Shown here piece by piece: positions 3,436-38,964 of a stretch of 64,000 bases of DNA (position 1 is the first letter of the stretch; the number at the start of each line of letters is the position of its first letter). The position numbers and the translations under genes were made by a program. The stretch comes from a virus: the IMG/VR virus record IMGVR_UViG_3300026488_000011, positions 64,001 to 128,000 of that record; one strand, written 5' to 3'. A model generated the notes under the pieces. That model worked only from the letters and a program-made list of their open reading frames with translations. It searched no databases and was not told the DNA's origin.

Positions 3436-5622
3436 ATGGCAACAACACCAGTTAATGCAGCTCCTATGTTTATACCATTAGGAACTGACGATAAATCAAC
3501 TAGACCTATCACACCAGCACCAATTCCAATTCCATCACATCTACCTCTAGTATTCCTTAAAACAGCTAGAGGACCAGTAGTAGATGAAATGGGATTAGCA
3601 GTAAGAGAATTAGTAGACGGTAGTAAATTACTAAAGTTATACGGAGATAGAACTCTCGATGTAAATGATGTGTTTTACAATCATGCTACTAAATTAGCAA
3701 ATACTGTATTAGGGAAAGGTAATAGTATATTAGTTCAAAGACTAGTATCTGAGGATGCTAGAAATGTTAAAGCTAATATCACTGTGTACTTAGATGTATT
3801 ACCTACAAAAGTACCGAACTACAAAAGACACAGAGATGGTTCAATCGCATATGACGAAAACGGTGAACCTATCGAAGATGAAAATAGTCCAATTGACGGA
3901 TTTAAGGTAAAATTAGTAGGAATTTCTGAGAGATCTACAGATGATGTAAATCCTGCTACAAGCCCTATCGGTACAAAAACTACTTTACCTGGTACAATGG
4001 TAGATGACAGCGGTGAAAGTACTGTACGCTCACAAATGTACCCTATCTTAGAATTCCAAGCAATGTACCCAGGTAGTGATTATAACAACATTGGATTTGC
4101 CATTAATCTAATATCTAACGATATGATAAATCCTGATGTTATAGAACTTATTAAAGCACTGCCTTTCGAACTTTATGTTTACGAAAAGAAAGATGGTGTG
4201 CCTACTATTAAAAGAACGTTATTCGGATCACAGTACAAAGATTTCGTATTTAAACCAAATACAACTGATCCAATTACAAATAAACCATATACATTACCGG
4301 AAGTACTGTATAGAGAATGGTATAATACAGATAATATGGAATTACCTCTAGAATATCCTGATGTTCAGAAACCATACATTTACTACGATAATCTAGAATT
4401 CTTGTTAGCTGAATTTATTCAAACTGAGAAACCATATATCAATGCTGATATTGAAACAGTGGACGGCGTAATCGTAAATACGTCAGAATGGTTTGATTTC
4501 TTACCAGATGCTACTGATAATGAAAATAAATGGTTATTAAACCCATTTAACGCATTCTCTAGTAAGAGAGTAAAATACTTTTCAATAGTGTATGACGATT
4601 CTGCCGTAGATGATAAGATATACAAAAACGTATACTTTAATGCTAACTTGCCATTCTATTTAGCTAATGGTATAGACGGTGATCTAACAGAAGAGAAGTT
4701 TGAAGAACTAGTATCTGTAGAAATGGATAAGTATATTGATCCTAACAGTGAATTCATGGATCTAGCTAAAAACGTAGAATCAGTATTTTACGACAGTGGA
4801 TTCAGTATAGACGTTAAGAAAAAACTGGCTAACTTCATAGGCTTAAGAAAAGATACATTTTTAGTATTAAGTACTAGAGAAGATAAACTAGGTGATAAGT
4901 TCGTAGATTTATCTACAGAAAGAGCTATTGCTATTAACCTAAAAGCTAGATTACAATTATTCCCAGAATCTACATTCTTCGGAACTCCAGTGGCTAGAGC
5001 TATGATTGTAGCAGGCAATGGTATTGATAAAAACGATAACACTAACCACAGATGGCCGTTAACTTTACACGTAGCTGCTAAAGCTGCTAGAATGATGGGT
5101 GCTGGTAACGGTAAATGGAATCCTAACTATCTATTCTTCAAAGGTGAAGATAACGTAATTGAACAGTTTATAGACGTGCAGCCGGCATTCGTGCCTCAAG
5201 GTGTTAAACCAGCACTATGGTCAGCAGGATTGGTATGGCCAGAGAAATATGATTTTAGAAGATACTACTTCCCAGCAATGCAAACAGTATATGACGATGA
5301 TACTAGTATCCTGAATAACTTTGCTGTAGGTATGGCTATTACTAAGATAACAAAAGTAGCGGCAGCTGCGCATAGAAAATTCTCAGGAGTAGTAGAATAT
5401 ACTCCAGACAGATTAATAGAAGAAGTTGAAAACTATATGATGTCTGAACTTAAAGATAGATTTGCTGGGGTTGTAAAACCTGTAGTAAAAGTAATGATTA
5501 CTGATTATGATAAAGAAAGAGGCTATAGCTGGACAACTGTTGTTAAAATGTATGCTAACAACATGAGAACTGTTAACACATTCTCTATCGAAGCTTGGAG
5601 ATTAGAGGACTATACAGGGTAA
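3436..5622 (+). CDS. Contractile tail sheath protein (phiKZ gp29-like)
   Basis: 728 aa. N-terminal NAAP..G.DDKS...HLPL...ARGP and C-terminal GYSWTTVVKMYANNMRTV are characteristic of phiKZ-like sheaths. Confidence 0.9.
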   Translation: MATTPVNAAPMFIPLGTDDKSTRPITPAPIPIPSHLPLVFLKTARGPVVDEMGLAVRELVDGSKLLKLYGDRTLDVNDVFYNHATKLANTVLGKGNSILVQRLVSEDARNVKANITVYLDVLPTKVPNYKRHRDGSIAYDENGEPIEDENSPIDGFKVKLVGISERSTDDVNPATSPIGTKTTLPGTMVDDSGESTVRSQMYPILEFQAMYPGSDYNNIGFAINLISNDMINPDVIELIKALPFELYVYEKKDGVPTIKRTLFGSQYKDFVFKPNTTDPITNKPYTLPEVLYREWYNTDNMELPLEYPDVQKPYIYYDNLEFLLAEFIQTEKPYINADIETVDGVIVNTSEWFDFLPDATDNENKWLLNPFNAFSSKRVKYFSIVYDDSAVDDKIYKNVYFNANLPFYLANGIDGDLTEEKFEELVSVEMDKYIDPNSEFMDLAKNVESVFYDSGFSIDVKKKLANFIGLRKDTFLVLSTREDKLGDKFVDLSTERAIAINLKARLQLFPESTFFGTPVARAMIVAGNGIDKNDNTNHRWPLTLHVAAKAARMMGAGNGKWNPNYLFFKGEDNVIEQFIDVQPAFVPQGVKPALWSAGLVWPEKYDFRRYYFPAMQTVYDDDTSILNNFAVGMAITKITKVAAAAHRKFSGVVEYTPDRLIEEVENYMMSELKDRFAGVVKPVVKVMITDYDKERGYSWTTVVKMYANNMRTVNTFSIEAWRLEDYTG

Positions 5623-35312: not shown

Positions 35313-35337
35313 AGGTGCAGGGAGTTACCCTGCACCT
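35313..35337 (-). terminator. Terminator after nvRNAP exon 3
   Basis: AGGTGCAGGG...CCCTGCACCT hairpin with a U-run on the minus strand; the stop codon is in the loop. Confidence 0.8.
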
Positions 35338-35546
35338 AACAGCTTTCTAGCTACTGGATCGTCTTCAGGACTACGGCTATCTTCTCTCATGTGTGTAAAG
35401 TTAGATAGCGTAGCCACTGTGGTAGACGGTATATATAAGTTTTTATTAACCTTACCGTCTATGTCTATGATGTTGTAATGTGGAGAAAACTTCTTAGCTA
35501 TCTCCGCCATCTTATTATCTAGTAATATAGTAGCATTCATTTCGTC
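35325..35546 (-). CDS. rpoC: Non-virion RNAP beta' subunit (gp55-like), exon 3
   Basis: Begins GAC GAA ATG (DEMNATILLD...) immediately after the terminal G of intron 2 (35547) and completes the DFDGD motif. Confidence 0.88.
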   Translation of the reverse strand, partial: DEMNATILLDNKMAEIAKKFSPHYNIIDIDGKVNKNLYIPSTTVATLSNFTHMREDSRSPEDDPVARKLLGAG

Positions 35547-35962
35547 CGTGATGTTCAGACAGGGTCGTTACTCCTGTCCCGCGGCATTACCCGCAGCTCT
35601 AGCTTTCACTAGAGACCAGACTATACCATCACCCTTTACCATAGGATCAATTATCCCTTAGGCAGTCGGGTGCCCTCCGTTTCGAACTCACTTGAGTCCT
35701 ACTCTACTCGGTTTTCACTATTCCGTTTCCAGAATAGCTATCCTTTCGACAGTCGTTGAACACACACCATATCCATTTGGACGTAGGTGCTTCGCTGCGG
35801 ATCGTCCTATACTAACGAGCTTTTTACTATACCATGGAGCACTCGCCTCCCCATGCCCTTATCCGGTTTCCCGGATAAGTTAGTACTCATTAGCTTCAGG
35901 ATGTCTCCGCAATTAGGAGGGTTTTTAACTAGAGTATTTCTACTCTAGGACAGCCAGTATTA
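35547..35962 (-). ncRNA. Group I intron 2 (416 nt, no ORF)
   Basis: P AATTGCGGAGAC (35903-35914), Q GATCCGCAGC (35794-35803), R GTTCAACGACTG (35750-35761), S TGGTATAGTCTG (35617-35628). The IGS GCTGTC pairs with exon GACGGT with a U.G pair at the splice site; terminal G present. Confidence 0.9.
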
Positions 35963-35971
35963 ACCGTCGAA
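35963..35971 (-). CDS. rpoC: Non-virion RNAP beta' subunit, 9-nt micro-exon 2 (Phe-Asp-Gly)
   Basis: TTC GAC GGT lies between the terminal G of intron 1 and the start of intron 2 and restores NGD-FDG-DEM in frame. Confidence 0.88.
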
Positions 35972-36383
35972 CGAGTACAATGTACTCGGACCATATCTTC
36001 ATCCCTTACCATAGGATAGATCATCCCTTAGGTAGTCGGATGCTCCCCGTTTCCCATCCAATTAGATGGTACCCTACTCGCTTTACCAGTAGTTACACTA
36101 CCAGCGGGCAGTCTTACCTTACCCTCACTATTACTATACCTTTCGGTATAGTCGCAGCTTTCGGTGGCCTCTGAACACATCCCATATCTATAAAAGACGT
36201 AGGGACTTCGCTGCGTCGATTCCGCAACACTATGACGTTTTTACCATACTCGTCGCTTCCATTACTGGGACGAGTATCATACTCGGTTTCCCGGTATGAG
36301 TGGTAGTCATAGCTTTTACACGGTTCCCGCAGTTAGGGGAGTATTTTGCTAGAGTATTACTACTCTAGGGTGACCTCGACCCG

Positions 36384-37673
36384 TTAAACTTTAACAACTC
36401 TTTTAATACCCAGAGAATCTATTATAGGTACATTTTTATCTTTTATGCAGTTAATGATGGTCTTTTGACTTACGTTAAAATGTCGAGCTGTCTCTCGTAT
36501 GCCCTTGAATTCCTTCTTTGTCCCGTCTTTAAATTCTACTAATATAGAAGTACTCCTAGAATAGTTGACTAAATTATCCATACACCACTTACCATTTTTC
36601 CATAACACCCAATCATTTATACGGTAACATTTGTCATCGTTTAGAAATTTTGCTAACTTAGCTCCGCTAATCTTTAAAAACTTTTTAGCTGGCTTTATAC
36701 CATTAAATTCTTTTACTTCACCTGTAACTAAATTTTTAACTTTCACCGGTTCTTTAGATTGTTTTTTATGTAGTTTAAATAATTCATATCTTTCATGGTC
36801 CTTTAAAACATCCAATAACATAGAATCCTTGTATAGGTAACCTTTTTCACCAGTCAATTTCCTCCACAATTTAGTCTTGTTATTATAGAACTCCAATTCG
36901 CCAGATTCTTTATTTCTAACGATTATACCCCATGGTAAATCTATTAAACTAGGATCCATAAGATACTGCCTATAACTATTGTCGTCTGCTAAATAATATA
37001 ATTCATCAGGTTCTGTCTCTGAATCAGAGGTCTTGCTAAACCAAGACGGGGTCTTCTTGTCAGATATAGTAGATTTACTTAACCCTAATATTTTACTCAC
37101 CCTGTTTAAATTACTACAAAACCAGATCCTTTTATCTAATACATTTGTTAACACATACATACCTAGCTTTAAGTTTGTTCTTGTATGTACGTTAGCAGAA
37201 TTTTGTTCCATGGTAGTCCAATGAATATTTTCTAAACGATTGTCCTTTTTATTGTTATTTTTATGGTCTACGATATAATCTGTAACAAAATCATTATTCG
37301 GCAACCATGCATATGCCATAAGGCGGTGTACTGTCGTTCTGTAGTGAGAATGTGTTTGTGTTGTGATTATGACACAATTATAACCGCTGCAATCAGATGT
37401 TTTTAATTTGGTGTTTGTTATTAAGTCATAAACATTTCCTACCTTATCTACAGCATACCTAGGCGCTATTGGGACAACAGCATATTCTTTCTTTGTTCTC
37501 ACACTGCAAAATACAACAGGCCTATCAAACATTGGTATATGTACTACTTCATACGGACCATTGCCTTGTCTTATCCTGGCAGGAACGTACTTTATGATGT
37601 TCTTTAACCACTCTAAACCTTTTGGGTATTTGTAATTCTCTGGGTATCTTATAAATTGTTTTTTGATCTTCAT
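36384..37673 (-). CDS. Intron-encoded HNH homing endonuclease (NUMOD4-HNH plus NUMOD1/IENR1-like repeats)
   Basis: YAVDKVGNV, VHRLMAYAWL, VDHKNNNKKDNRLENIHW, and three C-terminal F.SI..A...LG-type modules. Confidence 0.9.
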   Translation of the reverse strand: MKIKKQFIRYPENYKYPKGLEWLKNIIKYVPARIRQGNGPYEVVHIPMFDRPVVFCSVRTKKEYAVVPIAPRYAVDKVGNVYDLITNTKLKTSDCSGYNCVIITTQTHSHYRTTVHRLMAYAWLPNNDFVTDYIVDHKNNNKKDNRLENIHWTTMEQNSANVHTRTNLKLGMYVLTNVLDKRIWFCSNLNRVSKILGLSKSTISDKKTPSWFSKTSDSETEPDELYYLADDNSYRQYLMDPSLIDLPWGIIVRNKESGELEFYNNKTKLWRKLTGEKGYLYKDSMLLDVLKDHERYELFKLHKKQSKEPVKVKNLVTGEVKEFNGIKPAKKFLKISGAKLAKFLNDDKCYRINDWVLWKNGKWCMDNLVNYSRSTSILVEFKDGTKKEFKGIRETARHFNVSQKTIINCIKDKNVPIIDSLGIKRVVKV

Positions 37674-37676
37674 TCT

Positions 37677-37710
37677 TAACTCCTTTTTAAGTACTCAGTA
37701 TAAGGAGTTA
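37677..37710 (-). promoter_or_regulatory. Hairpin sequestering the endonuclease SD sequence
   Basis: TAACTCCTT...AAGGAGTTA stem; the SD AAGGAG is in the 3' arm just upstream of ATG 37673. Confidence 0.7.
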
Positions 37711-37749
37711 TTGTTTTAAAAAATGCTGTGTTTAACGGGTCTATAACGC

Positions 37750-38964
37750 ATCACCGTTTGGCGCTTTGATAGTCATCATGTTTACACCGATGGTCTTATC
37801 TTCGATATTAGTTTTGAATTTAGTTATATAATAGAGTTGACTAGACCCCATTAACAAGCTAGGATTCCTGTTAAATATTACAGGGATTCCTTTATAAGGA
37901 GATTCTTCTATCAACTCGTTCAGAATTTCTTCTATTACTGGATAATGCTTGTTGACGGCTTCAAAAACTAGGTTAGAAGCTTCTTTATACGTGTATCCTC
38001 TTTTTAAGAGCTTATTTATAATATGCGGTCTAAATGCAGTAGGACCTATTATCCATGGTACATGCAACACATCATAATCTTCGCTGGTAGGGAGTGAGGT
38101 GATTACCGCTCTGAAGGTAAAATGACTACGAGTACCATAGATATGTTTTCTCACCATTCCTTTTTTACCGGATAGCTTTTCTTTACTATATTTGATAAAG
38201 AGCTTAGCTATCCCGGAGATTATTTTACCTACACCATTCTCTACCTTTTTACTGTAAGGATCCATGTTTGCTAACTTTACTGCTAATAGCGATATATCGA
38301 TAACGTCTCCTAACATAGTAGTGGTATAAGCATCCTTCCCTGTTACTTCCATTACAAATAGTCTCTTATTCACTAACGGTAAATAATCTACTAGGAGTTT
38401 ATCCCTATTCCTTTTCCATTCCTCTAGCAATCTCTTGGCTTTCTTATCCTTTTTATTGGATTTAAACACAGAATTATTAGCTATATAGAGCAATATTTTC
38501 TCTATGTTATTTATAACGTTTAGATACCCCCTACCTCCTATTATATTTTTGATAGAATGGAGATATGTAGGTATCTTAGGAGGATTATAAGAAGTATCTG
38601 CTAACCAGCGTAGCCCGTCTATTCTTTTACCTAATATAGATGTGAGTTGATTCCAGAAATGCGGATTTAGGAATTTTAAATCATCCCTGAACTTCTCTAT
38701 CCATAGTAGCGGCTTTATTATGTCAAAAGCTTTCACTACAGAAGTACCGCATTTAGGACATGTCTGACCGAGTCTCCATGCACCTTTGAAATACCCGCAC
38801 TCGCATTGTGGTATGATGGAAATTTCGTCCTCGTATTGAGTAAACAACAGCTTTTTCATTTTCTCAGGTTCGACGTCGGTTATTTTAAAGTTGTTGAGAA
38901 TTAACTTACGATCTGTTTCGTGGAAATATTGATTTAGATCATTATAGTCTTGTACTATTGGCAT
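37750..38964 (-). CDS. rpoC: Non-virion RNAP beta' subunit (phiKZ gp55-like), exon 1; predicted spliced product 481 aa
   Basis: Zn-binding motif CECG...CPKC, SGKKGMVRKHIYGTR, FRAVITS and FNRNPSL. Ends at APNGD, immediately before the expected FDGD. Confidence 0.9.

Follow-up and report, generated by a model that had tools for sequence, protein, structure and literature searches.

Group I introns with HNH endonucleases are already known from polymerase genes of jumbo phages, by prediction in phiKZ and in gp210 of PhiPA3, and AR9 is another jumbo phage that has both in its polymerase genes. Here we describe two putative group I introns separated by a micro-exon of only 9 nt in a phiKZ-gp55-like gene, which encodes the beta'-N part of a non-virion RNA polymerase (nvRNAP). 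The gene was analysed in a 64,000-nt window (positions 64,001 to 128,000 of the IMG/VR virus record IMGVR_UViG_3300026488_000011) and lies on its minus strand; unless another record is named, coordinates are those of the window, and all features of the gene are on the minus strand. Both introns interrupt the codons of the catalytic loop, and the guide pairings of the two ribozymes on the micro-exon overlap by three nucleotides.

The predicted intron of phiKZ (gp55/gp56/gp56.1, where gp56 is the HNH protein) is found in the same gene and in the same catalytic motif. As in intron 1 of the window, the HNH open reading frame (ORF) lies between the 5' splice site and the guide and is followed by a core of ~370 nt, and the 3' domain of the phiKZ intron (…CTGAACAnnACG) is homologous to intron 2. 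In contrast to the window, the phiKZ gene is interrupted only once, after AAT (N|ADFDGD) and six bases upstream of the intron 1 site, and lacks a micro-exon. The authors of a long-read transcriptome reported no sign of splicing in the gp55 region (PMC10914365). The gp210 gene of PhiPA3 resembles our case: it is a chimallivirus RNA polymerase gene whose group I intron sits at codons for conserved Asp residues and carries an HNH endonuclease (PMC11620839). The encoded enzyme has been shown to nick a competitor's allele that has no intron (Birkholz et al. 2024, PMC11620839). Unlike here, gp210 encodes the beta subunit of the virion RNA polymerase, and its single intron occupies a different site (PMC11620839).

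Twin introns in the same motif can be recognized in the cultured phage Goslar (gp247/Intron_gpI/gp186/gp185). Its upstream intron is similar to intron 1, with a 6/6 P1 and a 6/6 P10 on the micro-exon, and the 3' domain of its downstream intron is homologous to intron 2. Unlike in the window, the putative Goslar micro-exon is 13 nt long, with insertion sites at +2 and +15 (numbered from the intron 1 site), and the helices need not overlap; the endonuclease is encoded in the 3' part of the upstream intron, also unlike intron 1.

Short exons and exon skipping have been reported for tandem group I introns in Twort, Coxiella, phiNIT1 and SIOphi. Twort orf142 (as cited in Ueda 2023) is similar to the present gene in having two group I introns around a short internal exon, its pair consisting of similar IA2-type introns. 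The exons of Twort (23 nt) and Coxiella (34 nt) are long enough for separate P10 and P1 helices, unlike the 9 nt here, and skipping was seen in such systems by reverse transcription PCR. In engineered tandem Tetrahymena introns, skipping proceeds via a joint large ribozyme or by use of the distal 5' site by the downstream intron (PMC10136302), and distinct P1/P10/P9 elements suppressed it experimentally (Ueda 2023, PMC10136302). That construct differs from the gene described here by its artificial 24-nt exon, identical parent introns and absence of overlap between guide footprints (PMC10136302). Exons of less than ~4 codons are regular among self-splicing introns of fungal and plant mitochondria, where a stepwise 'ratchet' splicing of complex introns has been described; unlike here, these cases are protein-assisted and do not concern a phage polymerase active site. 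Our literature search retrieved no description of twin introns in NADFDGD codons or of a P10/P1 overlap on one exon, and 9 nt is the shortest exon between two phage group I introns in the literature searched (23 nt in Twort, 34 nt in Coxiella, 24 nt in the engineered construct).

A beta'-N gene split by two predicted group I introns

The gene reads NGD | FDG | DEM over three exons. Exon 1 (37750..38964, 405 codons, from the ORF list) ends with AAC GGT GAT (N-G-D), and its ORF meets a stop three codons later. The micro-exon TTCGACGGT (35963..35971) encodes F-D-G. Exon 3 (35325..35546, 73 codons and a stop) starts with GAC GAA ATG (D-E-M), the first bases from 35546 being GACGAAATG; it was located by motif continuity and by tblastn with the C-termini of intact homologues. 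The three joined exons encode a 481-aa protein containing NGDFDGDEMN, in which the catalytic magnesium-binding loop is restored, and each exon contributes one catalytic Asp codon. Translation through a retained intron 1 gives NGDAL-stop and through a retained intron 2 NGDFDG-stop; partly spliced RNA would thus stop no more than three codons into whichever intron is retained. Because the three catalytic Asp codons are on three separate exons, any splicing error is expected to abolish catalysis.

In a tblastn search, exon 1 matched 290 records of phiKZ-like jumbo phages at ~30% identity, and PF00623 is present in homologues of its product in a large protein collection. This homology, the restored N-x-D-F-D-G-D loop and the end of the protein 73 aa later place the predicted product among the nvRNAP beta'-N subunits of Chimalliviridae (phiKZ gp55 type). 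Annotators should treat genes of this kind neither as broken nor as naturally split here. In the genome, a 185-kb record with terminal repeats, the two introns are the only group I matches; megablast against cultured phages gave no match.

Intron 2 (35547..35962, 416 nt) is ORF-less and has an extended P9 domain of three hairpins. It matches the group I model RF00028 over its full length (positions 1-253) with 79.3 bits against a cut-off of 50 (E 1.7e-18). Intron 1 (35972..37749, 1778 nt) contains an endonuclease ORF in loop L1, and its splice sites were set by motif continuity, U at -1 and a terminal G. Its core scores 28.2 bits on RF00028 (E 2.3e-6), under the curated cut-off of 50, and one further Rfam search of intron 1 yielded no hit. 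We assign it to group I because it is ~75% identical to intron 2 and shares with it a common fold supported by 23 compensatory pairs: both introns and those of a relative align into one architecture, in which 23 pairs, two of them in P3, are kept via two-sided changes. Both introns end with a G (35972 and 35547) at a position that restores the reading frame, and the 9-nt exon between the two cores gives the arrangement of tandem group I introns flanking a short internal exon. In contrast to the large P9 domain of intron 2, the P9 hairpin of intron 1 (35972..35988) is a minimal local fold, with 7 bp and a 3-nt loop, that abuts the terminal G.

The endonuclease gene (36384..37673, with AGGAG upstream of the ATG) lies between the 5' splice site and the guide of intron 1. 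Its product matches HNH_3 (PF13392; 3.8e-8, 33.3 bits, cut-off 24.8) and NUMOD1 (PF07453; 1.2e-9, 38.5 bits, cut-off 22.8), and a match to the I-HmuI NUMOD-like model is under the cut-off of that model. The combination of HNH_3 and a NUMOD module in an intron-encoded protein fits the I-HmuI-like HNH class, with predicted nicking activity. A perfect 12-bp clamp between GACCCGTTAAAC (37730..37741) and its exact complement GTTTAACGGGTC (36378..36389) sets the ORF apart in a loop of ~1.3-1.37 kb; the GTC at the end of the 3' strand doubles as the first three bases of the P10 guide. The stop codon of the endonuclease sits within the clamp, and a ribosome finishing this ORF would open the clamp.

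Guide pairings on the micro-exon

The first-pass annotation had proposed that both ribozymes claim the micro-exon, and the pairings on which this proposal was built are borne out on the minus strand. The internal guide sequence of intron 1, GTCACC (36369..36374), pairs at 6/6 positions with the end of exon 1, GGTGAT, with a U-G wobble and -6.8 kcal/mol. Directly 5' of it, the P10 guide GTCGAG (36375..36380) pairs with micro-exon bases 1-6, TTCGAC, at all six positions (five Watson-Crick pairs and one G-U; -5.8 kcal/mol), so that the joint 12-nt guide is complementary at 12/12 positions to the ligated junction GGTGAT|TTCGAC. The probability of such a match by chance at a fixed position is ~1e-5 for 12/12 and ~0.003 for 6/6. 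This P10 is pseudoknotted with P1 of the same intron, a structure that is not representable in the folding model.

The internal guide sequence of intron 2, GCTGTC (35949..35954), at which Rfam also places P1, pairs 6/6 with micro-exon bases 4-9, GACGGT, with a U-G wobble at the splice site. This P1 is a local hairpin of 8 bp (-7.3 kcal/mol) stacked on P2. A P10 in register is lacking in intron 2 (2/6 pairs). Both introns have a P1 of the group I type (GGUGAU/GUCACC and GACGGU/GCUGUC, each 6/6 with a terminal U-G), and self-splicing is predicted for both.

The GAC at 35968-35966 is common to the P10 helix of intron 1 and the P1 helix of intron 2. The two helices must overlap because a 6-bp P10 and a 6-bp P1 together need more than the 9 nt of the exon. 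The proposed mutual exclusivity applies to the full-length helices, which cannot coexist, but a 3-bp P10 (UUC/GAG, bases 1-3) is compatible with P1 of intron 2. The GUC of the P10 guide is engaged by the clamp as well, so the distal half of P10 is contested on both strands.

The P10 guide tracks the exon sequence. Relatives with a Tyr codon in the micro-exon (TATGAC) have ATCATG (L047, 5/6 pairs) or TATATG (L043, 4/6 pairs) in place of GTCGAG, and in both of them the two changed exon positions are compensated in the guide. The upstream intron of Goslar (intron A) has its own 6/6 P10. Across relatives the strength of the P10 pairing is 6/6, 5/6, 4/6 or none. Because the guide covaries with the exon, the predicted P10 of intron 1 is taken to be real, beyond chance and under selection.

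As had also been claimed, skipping of the micro-exon would stay in frame (NGD|DEM) and the product would be without one catalytic Asp, and the start of exon 3, GACGAA, fits the P10 guide poorly: only three of six positions pair, all internal, with both junction-proximal positions mismatched. What the first reading had overlooked is a quasi-repeat, GGTGAT..GACGGTGAC (GGTGAT TTC GAC GGTGAC), that provides each guide with a near-cognate decoy. The guide of intron 2 pairs at 5/6 positions with AACGGT in exon 1 (37753..37758), with -3.8 kcal/mol against -6.0 for the true site; after removal of intron 1 this decoy is 12 nt upstream of the true site, and its use would give the in-frame product NG|DEM. 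Conversely, removal of intron 2 creates GGUGAC at the 35963/35546 junction, which pairs with the guide of intron 1 at -8.1 kcal/mol, compared to -6.8 for the true end of exon 1.

Related introns in the same catalytic loop

The only close relative found by a protein-guided scan of IMG/VR is L007, a 186-kb contig with the same twin-intron cassette. In the comparison of 35325-38964 of the window with L007:4127-7773, identity is 70.6% in exon 1, 68.5% in exon 3 and 83.6% in the endonuclease region, and reaches 94.0% in the intron 1 core, 95.7% in intron 2 and 9/9 in the micro-exon. The conservation of the cassette relative to the host gene suggests that the pair has spread laterally as a unit or is under very strong constraint. 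A 15-nt junction pattern was found in 32 loci, of which only L007 is genuine, and a 17-nt core motif in three further loci without wider similarity. An Rfam E-value search of the 11-kb L007 locus gave no hit, despite its intron being 96% identical to the one that scores 79 bits, which probably reflects filtering. Three other sequencing runs, from two further studies, contain DNA contigs that bridge the micro-exon together with both introns; the mapped DNA contigs revealed no intron-less or single-intron joints for this phage, with thin cover in the other runs. No RNA run was listed as containing this stretch.

A search of 5.8 billion proteins yielded 120 homologue clusters with a bimodal length distribution. 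About 47 of them are intact, ~58 are broken at varying points in N-x-D-x-D-G-D, and ~14 at an upstream NRN motif. The breaks of the last class are located ~30 residues upstream at the NRN(P)SL motif and leave proteins of 276-396 aa (P0024-P0031, P0058, P0064, P0078, P0079, P0084, P0091, P0103, P0113); the gene probably has a further intron or insertion site at this motif.

Twin introns are present in several loci with micro-exons of different length. L047 has a 9-nt micro-exon and the same two sites as the window, with no endonuclease. The micro-exon is 11 nt long in L044 (cores of 45.7 and 41.6 bits), 12 nt in L048 (59.8 and 88.2 bits) and 13 nt in Goslar, where the second core follows the endonuclease gene. 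In the Goslar record (NC_048170, L006) one Intron_gpI is annotated, and gp247, gp186 and gp185 are recorded as separate genes; the intervals 167862-168234 and 169269-169645 fit two introns with the 13-nt micro-exon CGACGGTGACGCT, and the beta'-N gene is under-annotated there. Single introns are found at site 0 (L043, with an endonuclease), at site +1 (L046), at site +9 (L053 and L054, with an endonuclease in the former and none in the latter) and at site -6 (phiKZ gp55/gp56/gp56.1). In total, about eight positions among the 21 bases that encode NADFDGD are occupied by related ribozymes, and about half of the sampled alleles are interrupted, by which we recognize these codons of the gene family as an intron hot spot. 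Since single-intron alleles exist at either site, each intron type should be able to splice without the other.

The splice sites of the relatives were partly inferred from motif continuity, U at -1 and a terminal G. The cores of L043, L046 and L047 B (A and B denote the upstream and downstream introns) were missed by Rfam and were assigned by eye from conserved blocks. A simple guide search revealed no convincing P1 at the inferred boundaries of Goslar B, L047 B, L044 A and B, L048 A and B, L046 and L054. In L048 A (4186-4560) a G, not U, seems to precede the 5' splice site (AATGCG|AGT…ACAACG|GAC), and no other boundary keeps both the motif and the terminal G. In a poorly resolved maximum-likelihood tree of 17 intron cores the ribozymes do not cluster by site, and neither the tree nor the pairwise identities of the cores separate local duplication from independent invasion.

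Possible origin and order of splicing of the intron pair

We consider it probable that two selfish group I introns of one ribozyme family have crowded into a hot spot, the codons of the catalytic NADFDGD loop, with 9 bp between them, and that the GAC overlap is a by-product of this geometry and not an evolved device. Because micro-exons range from 9 to 13 nt among the relatives, which also include single-intron alleles at either site, the overlap appears to follow from exon length. Each ribozyme would define its own splice sites: intron 1 by the 12-nt guide for P1 and P10, and intron 2 by its local 8-bp P1 hairpin and the extended P9 domain, with no evident P10. The reactions at the micro-exon would occur one after the other in either order, and both orders would lead to the correct mRNA. 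A bias to removal of intron 2 first is conceivable, as its local P1 could form as soon as it is transcribed, but the GGUGAC decoy would result. The difference between the guides would favour inclusion of the micro-exon.

The proposal of ordered splicing is thus retained in part: the two reactions at the micro-exon are likely sequential in practice, but neither order seems to be forced, because model introns can do without P10, P1 leaves room for a 3-bp P10, and each intron type should splice alone in relatives. In a model intron system, disruption of P10 reduces splicing without abolishing it (Ueda 2023, PMC10136302). Similarly, the suggested protection against exon skipping is reasonable as a consequence of the distinct guides, which fit the published rule, but is not established as an adaptation.

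Several points weigh against the by-product explanation. Between this phage and L007, the cassette has diverged much less than the host gene (94-96% identity in the ribozymes against ~70% in the exons), which could reflect selection on the intron pair as a unit. The selected, covarying P10 may matter more than the word 'dispensable' implies, especially in combination with the minimal P9 of intron 1. Several downstream introns of relatives have no clear P1 at their inferred boundaries (Goslar B and L047 B, as well as L044 A and B), and neither does the upstream intron L048 A; parts of the comparative picture are therefore provisional. Finally, splicing itself, its order and its fidelity in this phage are all deduced from the nucleotide sequence.

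Among the alternatives, a mobile cassette is a real, if tentative, possibility. According to it, intron 2 was kept by being within the co-conversion tract of the nicking endonuclease of intron 1, or originally served to destroy the target site of this enzyme, and the micro-exon is just what lies between. It would account for the ribozymes and the micro-exon being far more alike between this phage and L007 than the exons; the HNH_3 and NUMOD1 enzyme is encoded by intron 1, and the contigs of other metagenomes hold both introns together. On the other hand, the high identity of the ribozymes may result from structural constraint and not from recent transfer, and it is based on one close relative only. 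Moreover, introns at +9 are found alone, with or without an endonuclease of their own, the tree of cores does not resolve their history, and the reads contained no variant of this phage with one intron or none.

We find it rather unlikely that intron 2 is obligatorily removed first, with its P1 taking the GAC co-transcriptionally and intron 1 ligating poorly until the full P10 can form. The energies of the local 8-bp P1 (-7.3 kcal/mol) and of the long-range P10 (-5.8 kcal/mol) are consistent with such an order, and so is the division of elements between a minimal P9 with a strong covarying P10 in intron 1 and a large P9 domain without P10 in intron 2; in addition, P1 of intron 1 must form across the 1.37-kb ORF loop. 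However, the GGUGAC that results from removal of intron 2 binds the guide of intron 1 more strongly than the true 5' exon does (-8.1 against -6.8 kcal/mol), and intron 1 is transcribed ~400 nt earlier. The site-0 intron of L043, with only a 4/6 P10, also appears to splice without a neighbour.

The first-pass annotation went further and suggested a possible kinetic timer for late transcription, an idea that gains no support from our analysis. In this model the shared GAC enforces the order, the mismatch between P10 and exon 3 guards against a dominant-negative subunit, and the two steps time late transcription by the nvRNAP. It is true that the full helices exclude each other, that skipping would keep the frame at the cost of one catalytic Asp, that skipping by engineered tandem introns is suppressed by distinct guides, and that P10 covaries with the exon. 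Still, we judge the model improbable: the 3-bp P10 is compatible with P1 of intron 2 and P10 is dispensable in model introns, while micro-exons vary between 9 and 13 nt and single-intron alleles are common. Because skipping shifts the frame in relatives with 11- and 13-nt micro-exons, no logic of an in-frame dead subunit is common to these introns. One may also speculate that the GAC acts as a strand-exchange toggle among the P10 guide, the L1 clamp, the intron 2 guide and the Asp codon of exon 3. This toggle would impose an obligatory order and release the active subunit only after both reactions, in the phage nucleus where splicing is uncoupled from translation, as a checkpoint or delay for the nvRNAP switch; we regard this idea as very doubtful. 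Regulated exon skipping, or folding of both similar introns as one large ribozyme, to deliberately yield a dead beta' subunit is hardly credible: skipping is documented for tandem phage group I introns (Twort orf142 and SIOphi TerL) and the two cores are ~75% identical, but compensatory changes in P3 and other helices mean that chimeric helices would mismatch, the guides are distinct, and the polymerase is presumed essential.

The locus raises the mechanistic question of how two ribozymes share one exon that is shorter than the footprint of P10 plus P1 without skipping it. The cultured phages Goslar and phiKZ are possible test systems.

The surroundings of the gene differ from those in some relatives. 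A chimallin gene is found directly upstream of the polymerase gene in L046, L048, L049, L053, Goslar and phiKZ; none was found directly upstream of it in this genome. A 650-aa ORF elsewhere in the genome (G000:C1:50215-50823, outside the window) has a weak chimallin-like match of 22.8 bits, below the cut-off. In one metagenome (run X3), contigs with a depth of ~24 match only positions 35548-35671, the 3' end of intron 2, and have unrelated sequence on both sides. A more abundant organism thus seems to have the P9 domain of intron 2 as well, in another intron or host gene.

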